The translations under genes were made by a program, and so were the position numbers. DNA of 64,000 bases, from positions 18,264-82,263 of the forward strand of contig JBDSQB010000010.1 of the NCBI GenBank assembly GCA_039930045.1, given 5' to 3'. How positions within the stretch are numbered: the stretch's first letter is position 1; every line of letters starts with the position of its first letter. Source of the DNA: Chthoniobacterales bacterium (lineage in GTDB: Bacteria > Verrucomicrobiota > Verrucomicrobiia > Chthoniobacterales > DASVRZ01). The notes under the pieces were generated by a model. That model searched no databases. It saw nothing but the letters and a program-made list of their open reading frames with translations, and was not told the DNA's origin. Shown one piece after another: positions 4,586 through 40,135 of this stretch.

Positions 4586-5344
4586 TTACTCCGCTGGCAG
4601 GGTGAAGCCGGCTTTTTTCCAGACGATCTGGGCTTCTGGGGTTTGCAGCCAGAGTTTGAATTCGCGGGCGTCGGGGGCGTTCGGGGCGTTGCGCAGGAGA
4701 ATGCCGGCTTGCTCCAGCCGGGGGTAGGCATCGGAGGGGATTTCCCAGTATCGGCCCTCGGCCTGCAGTTTCGGGGCGAGGGCGAGTGAGAGTCCGATGA
4801 GGCCGGCTTCGGCGGCGCCAGTTTGGACGAATTGGGCGGCTTGCACGACGTTTTCGCCGAGGACGAGGCGGTCTTTCACGGCGTCGTAAACGCCGAGCGA
4901 GCGCAGGGCGGCGACGGCGGCGCGTCCGTAGGGGGCGTGGTCGGGGTTGGCGATGGCGATTTTTTTCACCGACGGATCGAGCAGGGCGCGGATACCTTGT
5001 TTCGGAAGATCGAGAGGGGAGTTTTTCGGCACCCAAAGGACGAGGTGGCCGGTGCCGTAGAGGAAGAAATCGGACTCGGATGCCAGTCCGTCGGCGATCA
5101 ATTTTCTCGGAAATGCGGCGTCGGCGGAGAGGAAGAGATCGAAGGGCGCGCCGTTTTTGAGTTGCTCGTAGAATTTGCCGGAGGCGCCGTAGGTGGGGCC
5201 GATTTTCACGTCAGGATGAGTGGTCTGGTATTGGGCAATGAGCTCGGGGAGAACGAATTGGAGGTCGGATGCGGCGGCGACAAGGACGGGTTCGGCCGAT
5301 AACGATGCGACTCCGATGAGGAGAAAAAAGAGGACGAGTCTCAT
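4586..5344 (-). CDS. modA: molybdate ABC transporter substrate-binding protein
   Basis: Signal peptide MRLVLFFLLIGVASLSA followed by a ModA-like periplasmic binding fold (GASG, SADAAFP, ANPDHAPYG motifs). No modBC is adjacent. Confidence 0.75.
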   Translation of the reverse strand: MRLVLFFLLIGVASLSAEPVLVAAASDLQFVLPELIAQYQTTHPDVKIGPTYGASGKFYEQLKNGAPFDLFLSADAAFPRKLIADGLASESDFFLYGTGHLVLWVPKNSPLDLPKQGIRALLDPSVKKIAIANPDHAPYGRAAVAALRSLGVYDAVKDRLVLGENVVQAAQFVQTGAAEAGLIGLSLALAPKLQAEGRYWEIPSDAYPRLEQAGILLRNAPNAPDAREFKLWLQTPEAQIVWKKAGFTLPAE

Positions 5345-33814: not shown

Positions 33815-34207
33815 TCATGGACGGTTTTTCGGAAGCACTCGCTTCCTCGTTTCCAAACTGTCAATAGAGCTGACTCCCTCGTTCCCAAACTGAAGTTTGG
33901 GAACGAGTTGATTCATTAACCACTCGCGCCCTTCCAGCTTCACCTGTTCGAGAAGTACTAACGACGTGTGCCGTTTGATAGCCGTAATCGTCCTCTCCAA
34001 CTCCGGTCCTCCTAATATCGCGTGAAAGTGCGTATCGAGGACGACCCATGCGTAAATCTTCAACCCCCGTTGCTCGCGACAATGCACCAGCGAGCTAACC
34101 AAAATATCCGCACAAGCACTTGTCGCGAAAACCGGGAGCCAATTTACAATCGTGCCCGTGATGAAATGGGCGCGCTCTGGGTCGTTAATGTGATAACGCG
34201 TGCGCAT
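33815..34207 (-). pseudogene. REP-associated tyrosine transposase (RayT / IS200-like HuH Y1 transposase), apparently C-terminally truncated
   Basis: IYAWVVLDTHFHAIL closely matches the RayT HuH block (E. coli YafM INAWVVLPEHMHCIW). There is no Tyr anywhere after residue 52, so the catalytic Y block is missing. The frame runs into a REP-like palindrome. Confidence 0.6.
33876..33907. repeat. REP-like palindromic element, copy L (13-bp stem, tgaa loop)
   Basis: ccctcgttcccaaacTGAAgtttgggaacgag. Confidence 0.8.
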
Positions 34208-34266: not shown

Positions 34267-34299
34267 ACTTCAGTTTGGGAACGAGGGGCACGAGGGACC
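34267..34299. repeat. REP-like palindromic element, copy R, inverted relative to copy L (30/30 identity to its reverse complement)
   Basis: cccgttcccaaacTTCAgtttgggaacgagggg. The loop orientation is flipped relative to copy L. Confidence 0.8.
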
Positions 34300-34354
34300 C
34301 AGCCACCGCTGGTTCCTAACACACCGGCAGAATAAAGCAGTTGGCCTTTCTTCC

Positions 34355-35056
34355 CTACGGTGCCACCGGAGGAGTGGGATTCTCCTCAGCATCGTCTTCC
34401 GCGTGGCCGCCGCCTAGATCGACGATCAGGCGGGCACTCGTGTAGGCGTTAAAGAACTCCGGGTTCTTCCGCTTAAACTTTCGCATCGCCTTGTCGATCT
34501 GCTTCTTGAGTAACGTCATTGCGCTCGCTGTATCGAGCCCGATGTCGCCCGTCACCCCTTTGCCAGCCACGATCGCCTGTCGAGGAGCCGTCGCCAGGGG
34601 GAGGTAAACCGTGATCGCCGCATCCAGTTCGGCCAGGTCCTCCGCCGTCGTGCCCAGCAGATCGATGTCCGCCGCACGGGCCAGACAGAGATCATAGAGC
34701 GTGCGGCAATACGGGCCCACCAAGGCGTCATCCATGCGGAGCAACGTCGTTAGCTCCACATCCGTCTTTGCGGCCAGCTCATCATCCTGCGCCGTCACCG
34801 CCACCGTGTGGAGATCGCCCACCGCCGACACGGTCAACTCCGCCATCTCGATCTGCTTGCGGCTTTTGCCACCGGCGATGCCCGTCTGCGGTGTCCCTTG
34901 CACGCCACTCGCATCCTGAATCGACTTCACGAGAGCGCCGAGTTGCGTCACCAGCGCGGCAAACGCCGTCAGCGACACCCATTGGGCGTTGTATTTCTGC
35001 ATGATGCCGAGCACGGCGAGAAACATGCTGAGTTTGTTTTTCTGTGGATTTGTCAT
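34355..35056 (-). CDS. hypothetical protein (orphan, no recognisable motifs)
   Basis: 233-aa ORF with coding-like composition, lying between the REP/RayT element and the 21-bp repeat array. Confidence 0.5.
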   Translation of the reverse strand: MTNPQKNKLSMFLAVLGIMQKYNAQWVSLTAFAALVTQLGALVKSIQDASGVQGTPQTGIAGGKSRKQIEMAELTVSAVGDLHTVAVTAQDDELAAKTDVELTTLLRMDDALVGPYCRTLYDLCLARAADIDLLGTTAEDLAELDAAITVYLPLATAPRQAIVAGKGVTGDIGLDTASAMTLLKKQIDKAMRKFKRKNPEFFNAYTSARLIVDLGGGHAEDDAEENPTPPVAP

Positions 35057-35164
35057 ATACCGCCCGTGTCCAAGCAGAGCGTGAGCCAGTTCAACCGCAA
35101 TCGTTCAAAACACCGCCTTGGCGTGAAGATTTCTCACTTTATCACCCAAAAATTCGGTTTGCAG

Positions 35165-35416
35165 AGGCTTATGTCTGATCGCACGAAGCGTATGTTCCAC
35201 TTTGAGACCGCCATGCGCCGCAGTGAGGGCGGCAGGATCGACAGTGGATTGCGTATGTTTGCCTTCACTGCGCAAATGTCACCAATGCAAAGCCGTATGT
35301 TTGACCTCACCTGCTGTATGTTTGGGTGAGAGCAGCCTATGTTTCACTTGCAGGCCGGTATGTTTGGGTTGCAGAGCCCTATGTTTGGGTGAGAGACGGG
35401 TATGTGTGGCTAAATG
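35165..35416. repeat. array of 12 direct repeats with exact 21-bp phasing, core TATGTTT (iteron/centromere-like or cooperative regulator binding array)
   Basis: TATGT cores at 35170, 35191, 35254, 35296, 35317, 35338, 35359, 35380 and 35401, with degenerate cores (CATGC, CAGGA, AATGT) at the intervening 21-bp steps 35212, 35233 and 35275. Example units tgctgTATGTttgggtgagag and agcccTATGTttgggtgagag. Confidence 0.8.
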
Positions 35417-35585
35417 GCTGCTATTTCAAGGTAATGGCAGACGGACCTGCTAAACGCACGGCTCGGAAGGGCTTTATGGATCAAGTGACGAGGTTATTGT
35501 TTTTCCTTCCAGTTGTTCACTAGCCTATCATGGGTTTCTTTTGCACAGAACCCAGCGCCATCTCTAACGGTCACTCCTTAAATCT

Positions 35586-38500
35586 ATGAAAATACTTATC
35601 CTCCATATCAGTGACATCCACCTACGAGAAGAGCATCAGAATCCGAGCATTCCTAAATTTGGGTTTATTGCCCCGGCTTTGCAGAATGAGGAACATGACC
35701 TTACCCATGTAGTAGTTGCCATTTCTGGTGACGTAGCCTATGCGGGAAAGAAATCGGAATATGAGCTCGCTAAAAAGTGCTTAGATTCTTTGACAGCAGG
35801 CCTTCAGGAGCGTCTCAAAGTAGAAAAGGTTCGTTACGTGCTTATTCCCGGAAATCACGATTGTGATTTTTCCGGCAACAACAGAATGCGGATGTTGGCC
35901 ATTGAAGCTGTCAGAAATGGAGAAGCCCCTGACGATGAAATGATCGATTCTTGCTGTAAGCCGCAAGCCGAATTCGTAAAATTTCGGGACAGCCACCCAA
36001 ATGCCAAGCCAGATCACCAAAGCAGCCCTCTTCACTGGCAGTATCGAATAGAGGATGTCTCTTCAAGCATTGAGTTTCGTTGCTTCAACACAGCCTGGAT
36101 GTCCGTCCTGCACGAGACACAAGGAACACTACATGTTCCCGATTTGGTAGCCGACCATGAGGATTCGAGCAACGGGAGCGATTACGTGGTCTCGCTTTTT
36201 CACCACCCGTATAACTGGATGCCATCAGCAACTTTTCGTCGTTTCAAAACATTAGTGGAGGAGTCTTCGGATCTGGTTCTTACTGGCCACGAGCACGAAG
36301 CTGATCATTTTCAGAAATACTCATTCAAGAGTCAGGAAGTGAATGACTACCTCGAGGGTGCCGTATTCCAAGAGAATGATCGCGACGACCGAGCTGGATT
36401 CCACGCCGTATTTGTGGATTTAATTGCCCAGAGACAGAGGACCGTAAGTTTTACTTGGGAAGAACAAAGGTTTGCCCCTGAGTCTATCGAAGTGTCATGG
36501 GTCCCTTACAAGCGCGGAAGCCGAGGCGGCAAAAGAGAGTTTGATCTTAGTGAGGAGTTTGCAAAATCGCTTGAAGATCCTGGCGCAAGTTATCAACACC
36601 CCGCAAAACCAGACCTGCGACTTGCCGATATCTATGTATTTCCCAATTTGAAGCAGTTTGAGATCAGCAAGAAGACCGATTTTGTTTATGGATCTCTCAT
36701 TGAAGGCCGAGACGTTCTCAAGACACTCGGTTCGAAACGGAAGGTTTTGCTGTTCGGAAGACAGCAATCAGGCAAGACGACGCTTGCAAAGGTGCTTTTT
36801 ACCGACCTCTACAACAAGAATCTAACTCCGGTGCTCATCTCAGGAGACGATCTTACCAAAGCGCACCTAAACAGTGAGAAGTTAGATACATTAGTTGAGA
36901 CTCAATTCGCGAAACAGTACCGAAATCCAAATCTTCCGGCTTTCGATCAAGTTGATAAAGATAAGGCTATTTTGATCGTCGATGATTTTGACCATGGCGC
37001 ACTAAACTCAGCGGGGCGTCTCAAGCTTTTGGAAGTAGCAACGAAGCGTTACGATCGCTTGGTTGTCTTTGCTGACGATATAATCAAGCTAGAAGAACTC
37101 GCTGTTTATAAGGAAGGAAGTGATGTGCTAACAGATTTCGAACAATTCGAAATAGTTCAATTCGGCCATCTTCTCAGGAGCAAACTCATCACTCAGTGGT
37201 ACTCAATCGGAAGTGAATACGATGCGGATCCCATAGAGTTAGGGAAGCGTATCCATATTGCCGAACAGATGGTTTCAACAATGCTCGGGAAGAATTATCT
37301 TCCGCACTTTCCGGTTTTCATTCTCACCTTAATTCAAGCAAGCGATTCGGCAGCGCATCCTAACACTAGTGCGGGAACATACGGTAGTCTTTACGAGATT
37401 ATTATCACACAGGCGCTAGCTTCGAAATCATCAAATGTCGATCTCGACACTAAAATGACTTATCTGAGCGAAATTGCGCATTGGATGCATGCGGCCCAAA
37501 AGAAGAGAATTACAGATGATGAGTGGGAATACTTTCACCGGATATACTGCAAAAAATTCAAGATTCATCCATCAAAGGAATCAATAAAGAGGGATTTTGC
37601 AACTAACGGCTTATTTGATCTTAGAGACGAGCGTTACGGATTTCGGCATCCGGCTTCATACTACTATTTCGTAGCACGCTATTTCCGAGATAACTTATCG
37701 AAGGATTCAGCTCGAACGGCAGTAGCTGGTTTGTTGAGCAAGCTTTACAAAGAAGAGCACGCAAGCATCTGGCTGTTTCTCACACATTTATCGAAGGATC
37801 CGTTTCTGCTAGAAACAATTCTAGAGCATGCAAAGCGGATTTACTCTGAGTTTCCCTCAGCCCGTTTTGAAGAAGATGTTTCATTTCTTCAGGCCCTTGC
37901 AGACAGCGTTGAAAAGATTGTCTTAAAAGACAAATCTTTAGGGGAATCTAAAGAGGAGAGACTTAGGACACTTGATGCACTTCCTGCCTTACCTGACACG
38001 AGCGATGATTTCGACGGAGGTGAGGATGAGACAAATGAGACTCTTAAGCTAATTGCCAAGATGAACCTTGCCCTTCGAACTTTAGAAGTGCTCGGGCAAT
38101 TGGTGAAAAATTTCCCCGGTTCACTTCAAGGTGATGACAAGCTCGCATTGGTTCAGGAATGTTATGCGCTTGGTCTGCGTACAATTTCAATGTTGTTTGG
38201 TCTCTTCCAAAGTGATGTAGAGGCTTTTGTTGATTGCGTTTATGAGCGATTGATCGAGAAACATAGCGAAATTGATGACCGTGACGAACTAAAGAGCAAA
38301 GTTCGAAAGTTTATGTTTTGGATGATTGAAAGCGCGAGTTTTGGCATGATTAAGCGCATTGCTCAGGCGGTGGGCCATTCTCAACTCGGGGAAATCTACA
38401 GAGAAGTGAGGGAACAGGACGAAAGCAATGCAACTGCACTCATCGACATTGCTATCCACTTAGAGAACTTAGGTTTCCCTGAGGACAGATTGAAAGAACT

Positions 38501-38783
38501 GGCGCAAAAGTTTCTTCCGCAAATTAGCTCGCCGATGCAGCGCCCCGCGAGTAATTCTAAATACCCCGTTGCTGTTCCTCGGCGTAGCAAGAATCTATTT
38601 TGTGAACAGATATTGAAGCAACTGGTAGTGGAACACTTTTACCTTTTCCCAACTCGGGAATCGACCAAACAAAAGATTTGCGCGGCTCTCCAGATTGAGG
38701 TTCAAAAGATCCGGCATCTCGATGTAAAGGCCGAGAATGAGAGGCGTGCTCCTCAATCTTCTCTCCCGGATGAGAATCAATAA
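35586..38783 (+). CDS. calcineurin-like metallophosphoesterase fused to P-loop NTPase (AAA+/STAND-like) with large helical C-terminal region; candidate defence/stress protein
   Basis: MPP motifs D10xH12 (HISDIHL), GD48 (SGDVAY), GNHD89-92, HH207-208, GHEH235-238. Walker A FGRQQSGKTT (392-400), Walker B AILIVDDFD (462-470). ~590-aa alpha-helical C-terminus. GC ~45% versus ~62% in the flanks. Confidence 0.85.
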   Translation: MKILILHISDIHLREEHQNPSIPKFGFIAPALQNEEHDLTHVVVAISGDVAYAGKKSEYELAKKCLDSLTAGLQERLKVEKVRYVLIPGNHDCDFSGNNRMRMLAIEAVRNGEAPDDEMIDSCCKPQAEFVKFRDSHPNAKPDHQSSPLHWQYRIEDVSSSIEFRCFNTAWMSVLHETQGTLHVPDLVADHEDSSNGSDYVVSLFHHPYNWMPSATFRRFKTLVEESSDLVLTGHEHEADHFQKYSFKSQEVNDYLEGAVFQENDRDDRAGFHAVFVDLIAQRQRTVSFTWEEQRFAPESIEVSWVPYKRGSRGGKREFDLSEEFAKSLEDPGASYQHPAKPDLRLADIYVFPNLKQFEISKKTDFVYGSLIEGRDVLKTLGSKRKVLLFGRQQSGKTTLAKVLFTDLYNKNLTPVLISGDDLTKAHLNSEKLDTLVETQFAKQYRNPNLPAFDQVDKDKAILIVDDFDHGALNSAGRLKLLEVATKRYDRLVVFADDIIKLEELAVYKEGSDVLTDFEQFEIVQFGHLLRSKLITQWYSIGSEYDADPIELGKRIHIAEQMVSTMLGKNYLPHFPVFILTLIQASDSAAHPNTSAGTYGSLYEIIITQALASKSSNVDLDTKMTYLSEIAHWMHAAQKKRITDDEWEYFHRIYCKKFKIHPSKESIKRDFATNGLFDLRDERYGFRHPASYYYFVARYFRDNLSKDSARTAVAGLLSKLYKEEHASIWLFLTHLSKDPFLLETILEHAKRIYSEFPSARFEEDVSFLQALADSVEKIVLKDKSLGESKEERLRTLDALPALPDTSDDFDGGEDETNETLKLIAKMNLALRTLEVLGQLVKNFPGSLQGDDKLALVQECYALGLRTISMLFGLFQSDVEAFVDCVYERLIEKHSEIDDRDELKSKVRKFMFWMIESASFGMIKRIAQAVGHSQLGEIYREVREQDESNATALIDIAIHLENLGFPEDRLKELAQKFLPQISSPMQRPASNSKYPVAVPRRSKNLFCEQILKQLVVEHFYLFPTRESTKQKICAALQIEVQKIRHLDVKAENERRAPQSSLPDENQ

Positions 38784-38822
38784 GTCCCTTCAAATCATTG
38801 CAGGCCGTTCTGAAGCCACCAA

Positions 38823-38896
38823 ATGGCTGCCTCACAAGGATTTGAACCTTGACAAATTGATCCAGAATCAATTGTGCTACCGTTACACCATGAGGC
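38823..38896 (-). tRNA. tRNA-Gln (anticodon CTG)
   Basis: Minus-strand 74-nt cloverleaf: acceptor tgcctca/tgaggca (U1:A72 as in bacterial tRNA-Gln), D stem gtg/cac, anticodon stem attga/tcaat with loop ttCTGga, T arm caagg-ttcaaat-ccttg, discriminator G, CCA. Confidence 0.8.
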
Positions 38897-38989
38897 ACTC
38901 TTTTTGGGGGCGTTAGTTTACCTCAGGGAGGGTTTTGGGCAAACGGAATTTTCCATCCGCCTGAGGATCGCCCTCCATCCGCCTGAGCG

Positions 38990-40135
38990 CTATCGAACTC
39001 GAATGGAGACCAACGCGGAGAGGCCGGGGTGGATGCGGCTCTGCAGGTCGCGAGTTTCATTCGGATCGAGGAGGATTTTTACCGGGACGCGCTGGACGAC
39101 CTTGGTAAAATTGCCGGTGGCGTTGTCGGGCGGGAGCAGGGTGAAGAGGGCACCGGTGCCGGGGGAGAAGCTGTCGATGTGCCCGTGGAAATCGTGGCCG
39201 GGGAGTGCGTCGATCTCGATGTCGGCGGGCTGGCCGGGTTGCATGTGGGCAAGCTGGGTTTCCTTGAAGTTGGCCACGACCCAGACGTTGTCTTCGACGA
39301 CGGAGAAGAGGGCCTGGCCGACCTGGACGCGGTTGCCGGTCTCGACGTTTTTGTTGCCGATGCGTCCGTCGGATGGGGCGCGGATGATGGTGTAGGAAAG
39401 CTGGCGCTCGGCGTCGCGCAGGGCGGCGCGGGCGGAGTCGATGCTGGCCTGGGTGGCCTGCGCCTGCGAGGGGCCGGCGCCGAGCAGGACCTTGGACGAG
39501 GCGACGCTGGCTTGCATGGCTTCGAGGTTGGAGCGGGCGGCGTTGTCGGCGGCCTGGGCGGTGTCGAAGTTGGATTGCGCGGTGTCGAGGTCGGCTTTGG
39601 TGACGACTCCGCTGCCTTTGTCGAAGAGCTGTTTCGTGCGGCTAAGGTTGGAAGCGGCGAGGCTGAGTTGCGCGGCGGTCTGGCGGGCCTGGGCGTCAGC
39701 CTGGTCGGCATGGGCAATAGCGGCGGAGACCTGGGCCTCGGCATAGGGAACGACGGCGCTGGTTTGAATGAGCTGGGCCTCGGTCTGCGCGAGGCTGGCG
39801 CGGGCTTTGTCGCGGGCGATCTCGAACTCGAGCGGGTCGAGTTTGATAAGAATGTCGCCTTTATGGACGACCTGGTTTTCGTTCACGGGGACTTCCACGA
39901 CGGTGCCGCTGATTTGCGGGCTGATGAGGTGTAGATGCGCGGTGATGAAGGCGTCGTCGCTTTTTTCATATACGTAGGCGTGGTAGGCGAAACGAAGCGT
40001 GAGGACGAGTGCGGCGAGTCCGATCACGATGAAGACGGCCTTGCGGATGCGGCTTATCGGCGGTTTGGCGGTCGTGCTGACGGCGGAGGATTTGGCGGCA
40101 GCGGCTTTTTTAGACGAGGCGAGTGTGGCGTTCAT
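38990..40135 (-). CDS. emrA: HlyD-family efflux periplasmic adaptor (EmrA-like)
   Basis: N-terminal TM, long coiled-coil hairpin, C-terminal beta-barrel motifs (IRAPSDGRIGNKNVETGNRV). Confidence 0.85.
   Translation of the reverse strand: MNATLASSKKAAAAKSSAVSTTAKPPISRIRKAVFIVIGLAALVLTLRFAYHAYVYEKSDDAFITAHLHLISPQISGTVVEVPVNENQVVHKGDILIKLDPLEFEIARDKARASLAQTEAQLIQTSAVVPYAEAQVSAAIAHADQADAQARQTAAQLSLAASNLSRTKQLFDKGSGVVTKADLDTAQSNFDTAQAADNAARSNLEAMQASVASSKVLLGAGPSQAQATQASIDSARAALRDAERQLSYTIIRAPSDGRIGNKNVETGNRVQVGQALFSVVEDNVWVVANFKETQLAHMQPGQPADIEIDALPGHDFHGHIDSFSPGTGALFTLLPPDNATGNFTKVVQRVPVKILLDPNETRDLQSRIHPGLSALVSIRVR

Follow-up and report, generated by a model that had tools for sequence, protein, structure and literature searches.

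An array of twelve 21-bp direct repeats occupies positions 35165..35416 (plus strand) of the window, as we term the whole 64-kb stretch of DNA that was analyzed. Comparison with related loci indicates that the array very probably belongs with the family of a divergently oriented gene encoding a 233-aa protein (34355..35056, minus strand) and that it is non-coding. We propose that the gene and the array form a two-part module in which the array would be a non-coding cis-element. The reading that we favor, with a probability of roughly 0.45, is that the array is a same-face series of predicted protein-binding sites that would serve the 233-aa gene as a regulatory or architectural element upstream of it. 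The same pairing in two phyla points to a putative protein/cis-element module that was previously undescribed. Phased binding-site arrays are already known as a kind of element; for the 233-aa family and its coupling to a 21-bp array, no description was found in the literature, Pfam, PHROGs, NCBIfam, PADLOC, or Rfam.

Register and composition of the array

The array was delimited by listing the sequence in a 21-nt register from 35165, by motif counts, by self-identity at a lag of 21 nt, and by comparison with an orthologous array at a second locus (L187). The 12 units run head-to-tail, and their cores begin at 35170 + 21n for n = 0 to 11 with zero phase slips, as the original prediction had it; a recount of the spacing, which that prediction had named as a point on which it could fail, gave a constant 21 bp over all 12 units. 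The further claim that every unit carries a TATGT core or a degenerate version of it stood for 10/12 units, which have [T/A]ATGT, but not for unit n = 2, with the core CATGC, or for unit n = 3, which is of a second type. Exact TATGT is present in nine units (n = 0, 1, 4, 6, 7, 8, 9, 10, and 11), the core of unit n = 5 is AATGT, and the longer TATGTTT is exact in six (n = 4, 6, 7, 8, 9, and 10). On the strand leading away from the 233-aa gene, the consensus is approximately AGCC-TATGTTTG-nnnT-nAG. Unit n = 3 (35228-35248) reads GGCGGCAGGATCGACAGTGGA (also written GGATCGACAGTG) and is a second-type unit, GATCGACAGTG, that is retained in the orthologous L187 array and is similar to the predominant unit in arrays that are more distant. 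Judged by this likeness, it is a different unit type, AAAATCGACAGTGAG, found in related arrays, rather than a decayed TATGT unit.

Nine of the 21 plus-strand occurrences of TATGT in the 64-kb window fall inside the array, all in a single phase. Self-identity of the array is 0.56 at lag 21 and ≤0.41 at other lags and in shuffles, and no second multi-copy array was identified elsewhere in the window. Tandem Repeats Finder called just 3.6 copies (35316-35390) because the units are less than 70% alike. The variable parts, of 5-13 nt, are repetitive themselves (GGGTGAGAG and TTGCAG each occur twice). Comparison of arrays bears out the proposal of a short conserved core with variable flanks, in that conservation inside the arrays is confined to short cores. 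The other lag-21 signal in the window comes from an Ala/Gln-rich coiled-coil coding stretch of an HlyD-family gene (39473-39787, minus strand); thus, heptad repeats too can give a 21-nt period.

Pairing of the array with the 233-aa protein family

DNA was examined for 11 independent loci that encode relatives of the 233-aa protein in Chthoniobacterales (Verrucomicrobiota) and Bacteroidota. An array was identified upstream of the start codon of the family gene, at a distance of ~70-450 bp, in 9/11 loci (the window, L187, L188, L189, L190, L191, L194/195, L196-199, and L200/201). Directly upstream of the start codon in these nine loci, lag-21 self-identity is 0.55-0.80, while other lags and shuffles give ≤0.46, save for an unrelated REP-like repeat (lag 25/38) at L189. 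Across 150 kb of family loci, lag-21 regions were detected only upstream of the family gene, the exception being the HlyD coding stretch. In the module, a spacer of ~70-230 bp separates the gene from the array, which has 8-19 units, each exactly 21 bp long; the period is 21 bp in every array, often with a 42-bp super-period. Orientation is likewise constant, with a TTG[A/C]A-like motif on the strand that leads away from the family gene. An array was absent at the family loci L192/193 and L202 and on the P0033 contig, where there is only a 139-bp intergenic gap.

The sequence of the units changes among lineages. The core TATGTTTG is common to the window, L187, and L040 (a locus discussed below), whereas other arrays are built on GCC[AG]TTG[CT]TTG (L190), AAAATCGAC (L191 and L189), TTGCAAnnAAnAC (L188), TTGCAG-N5-GCAGA (L194), or TTGAA-N6-ACAG (L196-199). 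Conserved positions at L194 and L196 form two blocks that are ~10 bp, or one helical turn, apart. Since the 21-bp period is kept in relatives with unrelated unit sequences, the phasing appears to be the constrained feature, in keeping with the emphasis that the original prediction had placed on a spacing of two helical turns.

The closest comparison is with L187, where the family protein is 85% identical to that of the window and the orthologous array has 15 units rather than 12. Homology between the two loci in blastn and tblastx covers the gene and the array only (34385 to ~35424), and both flanks differ. It spans the 108-bp spacer (35057..35164, minus strand) that separates the start codon of the 233-aa gene from the array and holds GTTTTGAAC and TGGCTC-N5-CTCTGCT, both kept in L187; the spacer is presumed to be the promoter and leader region of the gene. 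The positions of the non-consensus units are also conserved between the window and L187. The homology ends at the distal edge of the module (35405..35424), which was placed by blastn and tblastx end points, composition, and a k-mer search. A sigma-54 enhancer model was considered for TGGCTC-N5-CTCTGCT and rejected, as this element lies at -32, too near the ATG, and was present in the window and L187 only and absent elsewhere. At three Bacteroidota loci (L194, L196, and L200), a different motif, AAT(A/T)ACCAC-N4-6-GT(T)ATTG(T/C)C, is conserved ~60-90 nt ahead of the ATG, in the stretch that separates the start codon from the array, and may be a promoter or operator element.

The 233-aa gene is the only neighbor of the array that is conserved across loci, and no other protein is common to the family loci. 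The gene beyond the array differs at every locus. At L187, a DUF3606-like ORF (assigned by eye from its translation) and an OLD-family nuclease gene lie beyond the array, and a carA-like ORF (also by eye from its translation) lies downstream of the family gene; the far-side genes at other loci include RM/AIPR genes, a LytTR two-component pair, MerT, and IS110. Defense or mobile genes adjoin the module at several loci, namely PDC-S60 in the window, the OLD nuclease at L187, RM/AIPR/AbiEii at L188, RM at L194, and IS110 at L199. The module thus sits at the edge of variable, often defense-rich DNA, and conservation does not extend to its cargo side. The loci are chromosomal and have housekeeping genes as neighbors, among them the carA-like ORF of L187 and a urocanase gene. 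L187 also has a 6S RNA gene (4884-5063, plus strand; Rfam RF00013, 49.6 bits) between an astacin-like gene and the OLD-family nuclease gene.

Three contigs that encode an identical Bacteroidota protein (L196, L197, and L199) agree over the gene, the array, and 360 bp more. Beyond this, they diverge sharply at one base after ...GGCGTATATTTATGAGTT, 813 bp upstream of the gene (locus coordinate ~2187), and continue into a LytTR pair, MerT/HTH, and IS110. The junction, at which a weak hairpin and a T-rich tail were observed, may mark a hotspot for insertion or the point at which a transcription unit ends. The LytTR pair adjoins the array only at L196/L198, and L197/L199 have the identical array without it. 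A LytTR/AgrA-type consensus, which we take TATGTTTGG to resemble, was rejected as an account of that motif because that consensus is too degenerate and a LytTR neighbor is present in one strain variant only.

A window-type array was also identified at 6795-7067 of L040, a Verrucomicrobiaceae MAG contig with no family gene in the 8 kb of sequence covered. Unit-specific strings, TATGTTTGACCTCA and GTTCCACwTTGAGAC, are common to this array and that of the window and fall in the same register. On one side of this array is an ORF of 528 aa whose Cys-rich motifs look like those of 4Fe-4S proteins, and on the other is a convergent ORF resembling a helicase/DUF559 fragment; both were assigned by eye.

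The 233-aa protein is acidic (pI 4.98), and AF2 models it with confidence (pLDDT 83.5) as an all-helical bundle. No family match was found in Pfam or PADLOC; matches to Rep, ParB, ParR, or HTH proteins were absent by sequence or fold, and no recognizable DNA-binding fold was detected. The family has few universally conserved residues, none of them both universal and catalytic-looking. No feature of the protein marks it as binding DNA or RNA, and none excludes binding. There are 34 close homologs, the best named one being from a Chthoniobacterales MAG, and a profile search (E ≤ 1e-3) recovered 6448 cluster representatives (~6400 counted at 50% identity). Members of a Bacteroidota branch bear a C-terminal CarboxypepD_reg/Ig-like domain. 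Searches for the family gave no tblastn match among 72,556 plasmids (PLSDB), nor was it found in IMG/VR viral contigs in scans with two family alignments.

Proposed phased binding sites and competing readings

Same-face binding sites are the most likely reading of the array because 21 bp corresponds to two turns of B-DNA. The units would offer sites on a single face of the helix to a cooperatively binding protein. The binder would be either the product of the 233-aa gene or a dedicated, fast-evolving regulator encoded elsewhere, since divergence of the protein is accompanied by change in the units and the array has no other linked gene. In period, position, and constant orientation, the array agrees with tandem operators, in which direct repeats of ~21-22 bp lie upstream of a promoter, here a putative one. 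A precedent is the Bordetella ptx promoter, where BvgA~P reportedly occupies many weak sites two helical turns apart (PMC7250471). The likeness lies in weak, degenerate direct sites at two-turn spacing upstream of a promoter; those of ptx are reportedly bound cooperatively on one face of the DNA. The arrays described here differ from that system in having 8-19 units, in traveling with one gene family across phyla, and in having lineage-specific cores. The ptx promoter reportedly has about six dimer sites.

Several observations weigh against binding sites. The partner protein, at pI 4.98, is acidic and has no recognizable DNA-binding fold, and the C-terminal CarboxypepD_reg/Ig-like domain of some relatives would be unusual for a regulator. 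Some family loci (L192/193, L202, and the P0033 contig) have no array, and L040 has a window-type array with no family gene within reach. Arrays of 12-19 sites far exceed ordinary operators, and terminator-like hairpins after some arrays leave room for a role at the level of RNA.

More tentatively, and with lower odds than binding sites as such, the 233-aa helical family and the 21-bp array may be cognate partners in a previously undescribed nucleic-acid/protein system. In one form, the protein would build a filament along one face of the DNA, contacting it every two turns, and the array would be autoregulatory or a centromere-like anchor. In another, the partners would be a repeat RNA and a protein with a role in defense or addiction. 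Specificity would in either form co-evolve by lineage, and the module would tend toward the edges of variable, defense-rich regions. If the pairing is functional, it would provide a first handle on a large unannotated family of ~6400 representatives from soil Verrucomicrobiota and Bacteroidota, in which each copy brings its own candidate ligand next door, and the array would be an unusually long, strictly phased natural series of binding sites.

The strongest competitor to phased binding sites, although we consider it rather unlikely, is that transcription of the array yields a repeat RNA that works jointly with the 233-aa protein, in the manner of type III toxin-antitoxin or Abi systems. Such an RNA could be an antitoxin- or decoy-like partner, with tandem repeats preceding the protein gene, or a sponge with one binding motif per 21-nt unit. 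As in ToxIN, CptIN, TenpIN, and AbiF-like systems, an array accompanies a single protein gene, often in a neighborhood of defense or mobile genes; tandem repeats lie immediately upstream of the gene (~70-450 bp) in 9/11 loci, and nothing else is conserved alongside. The protein is no obvious DNA binder, and terminator-like hairpins lie distal to the arrays of L194, L196, and L200 on the strand leading away from the gene. However, type III antitoxin repeats are 34-45 nt in length and nearly identical, whereas the units here are 21 nt, degenerate within an array, and less than 70% alike. Neither a conserved terminator between the array and the family gene nor a ToxN/AbiQ/CptN/TenpN toxin was found, with no PADLOC or Pfam model matching the unrelated, all-helical protein, and its family is without universally conserved, catalytic-looking residues. 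One terminator-like hairpin at L196 precedes the array. The predicted folding of the array RNA is no better than that of shuffles on either strand (z = -0.15 and -0.24), and the array has no match in Rfam. The exact 21-nt period has no obvious rationale in RNA and equals two turns of DNA.

It is less probable still that the array is functionless, in which case it would be a long-standing tandem repeat, turned over through unequal exchange and carried along with the 233-aa gene. Copy number does differ between close relatives (12 in the window and 15 in L187), the 42-bp super-period is typical of repeat turnover, arrays are missing from some family members, and unrelated genomes commonly have 21-bp tandem repeats built on a TATGTTT core. 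Yet arrays in two phyla agree in period and position despite replacement of their sequence, conservation lies in short cores instead of being uniform, and the window and L187 have their non-consensus units at the same positions. Moreover, functionless DNA is usually deleted from prokaryotic genomes.

A scan for TATGTTT occurring three times at 21-bp spacing, which covered 185,579 genomes as well as metagenomes from JGI, returned >180 loci from many phyla that look similar in register. Looking for the motif elsewhere succeeded only in part: the matches are mostly unrelated repeats, and among them only L040 looks truly homologous to the window array, as judged from its shared strings. In-register inspection, clustering of neighbors, and HMM searches led us to reject a universal motif class, since the search pattern itself imposes the TATGTTT core on all of these loci; they have no neighboring gene in common and no member of the 233-aa family. 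Some are Bacteroidota intergenic repeats beside T9SS/TonB-type genes (assigned by eye from translations), and others are eukaryote-like satellites (AAAGAGCCCTATGTTTTCGC). The latter include L130, L131, L139, L185, and related metagenome loci, in which AAAGAGCCCTATGTTTTCGC occurs as a dispersed or tandem 21-bp repeat with many variants and a eukaryotic look. The match of AAAGAGCCCTATGTTTTCGC to the window unit AGCCCTATGTTT is a coincidence. Two further 21-bp arrays, both unrelated to the 233-aa family, are in a Phycisphaeraceae locus (L004 4391-4600, ten units with the palindromic core AAACATATGTTT) and in Thermodesulfobacteriota (L078 7066-7743, 33 near-identical units).

The neighboring island and open reading frames

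On its other side, the array is followed by a gene for a 1065-aa protein with Metallophos and STAND-NTPase domains (35586-38783, plus strand) that matches PDC-S60, a PADLOC candidate single-gene defense system (3e-115). The last base of the array lies 169 nt ahead of the ATG at 35586, in agreement with the distance of ~170 bp given originally. A tRNA-Gln(CTG) gene lies beyond the PDC-S60 gene (38824-38897, minus strand). Content of G+C falls from ~0.59 to 0.43-0.48 between ~35.0 and 39.0 kb; therefore, the defense gene is a separate small low-GC island of 3.4 kb, with the array on one side and the 3' end of tRNA-Gln on the other. Both edges of the island carry the 10-nt direct repeat AAATGGCTGC (35412-35421 and 38821-38830), the right copy overlapping the 3' end of tRNA-Gln. 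The k-mer search found two 10-mers where roughly 0.5 would be expected by our own estimate, a count that is weak alone. An att site was considered and set aside, as only the 10-nt AAATGGCTGC joins the edge and tRNA-Gln, with no longer match, and it is absent from L187; the pair may be an att remnant of the island. No integrase gene was identified in the neighborhood of the array or island.

The original prediction was that the array may control the phosphoesterase-NTPase gene or mark the remnant of an integrated replicon, as iterons or a partition centromere of a plasmid or phage would. We regard these readings as very improbable and largely refuted. In their favor, the array points in the same direction as the PDC-S60 gene, ends 169 nt ahead of its start, and is at the edge of a low-GC island beside a tRNA gene, and direct repeats ~21-22 bp apart are typical of iterons and of some centromeres. 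Control of the PDC-S60 gene does not survive comparison among loci: homologous arrays adjoin unrelated genes (at L187, the DUF3606-like ORF and OLD nuclease), and the homology to L187 ends at the distal edge of the array, before the island. Nor do the replicon readings, as no rep, parA, parB, parR, or integrase gene was found in the neighborhood, and the partner family is without plasmid or viral relatives in the 72,556 plasmids and viral-contig scans.

Iterons, such as those of R6K and pPS10 (22 bp), are direct repeats of 17-22 bp in helical phase, and the window array, at 12 x 21 bp with a lag-21 identity of 0.56, is alike in this respect, in adjoining a gene of ~230 codons, and in having a sequence that diverges together with the adjacent protein. 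It differs from them in that the adjacent 233-aa protein has no Rep-like sequence or fold (a Rep initiator of the winged-helix family is lacking) and that the loci are chromosomal. Partition centromeres such as R1 parC, pSK41 parC, and F sopC (12 units) nucleate a protein filament and adjoin the gene for their binding protein. The arrays here are similarly long and tandem, in the range of sopC, but no ParA, ParM, or TubZ partner is linked to them, the neighboring protein has no RHH or HTH fold, and they are not on a mobile replicon; the NTPase nearby is the STAND-type PDC-S60, and it is not conserved alongside the array. The alternation of repeats and unique spacers seen in CRISPR or TIGR systems was likewise not found, nor were cas or tas genes. 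For annotation, the array should not be taken as a regulator of the neighboring defense gene or as a plasmid relic.

Least credible of all is that the array encodes a heptad-repeat peptide, be it the Cys-rich ORF at 35202..35453 (83 aa, TTG start) or a small divergent protein of Bacteroidota that ends in a hydrophobic tail. The Cys-rich (xCL) frame runs through the arrays of the window and L187 without a stop, but it is stopped in L040, L189, and L191, and every frame is interrupted by stops in L191 and L196. Gene callers sometimes predict ORFs over the arrays, although the strands of these calls differ from locus to locus and the "peptides" of different lineages are unrelated. Open frames on the minus strand that lead away from the family gene have 150 codons in L194 (3426-3878) and 205 codons in L200/201 (L201 2246-2863); these ORFs of AT-rich Bacteroidota have hydrophobic, TM-like ends, but they have no ATG ahead of the array, and their frame has two stops in L196 and no codon-periodic conservation. 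Codon-position-specific conservation of the Cys-rich ORF, which would have spoken against the predicted array, was looked for and not found; of 10 arrays, none had a 3-base period in its conservation (permutation fractions 0.21-0.89). Substitutions between the window and L187 arrays fall 8/14/8 by codon phase. With no frame kept across relatives, the array, as originally predicted, is by all sequence indications non-coding; the open frames in the window, L187, L194, and L200 are taken as by-products of stop-free repeat units, more tentatively so in the Bacteroidota loci L194 and L200, and gene calls over such arrays are probably spurious.

Two further features lie on the far side of the 233-aa gene in the window. 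REP-like repeats (GGGAACGAG) occur directly downstream of the gene at 34270-34300, with the translated motif PKLQFGNEG on both strands. Beyond them is a 130-aa ORF (33815-34207, minus strand) that has no Pfam match and appears IS200/RAYT-like by eye (MRTRYHINDPERAHF...). A related ORF with REP-like copies is present beyond the array in L189.
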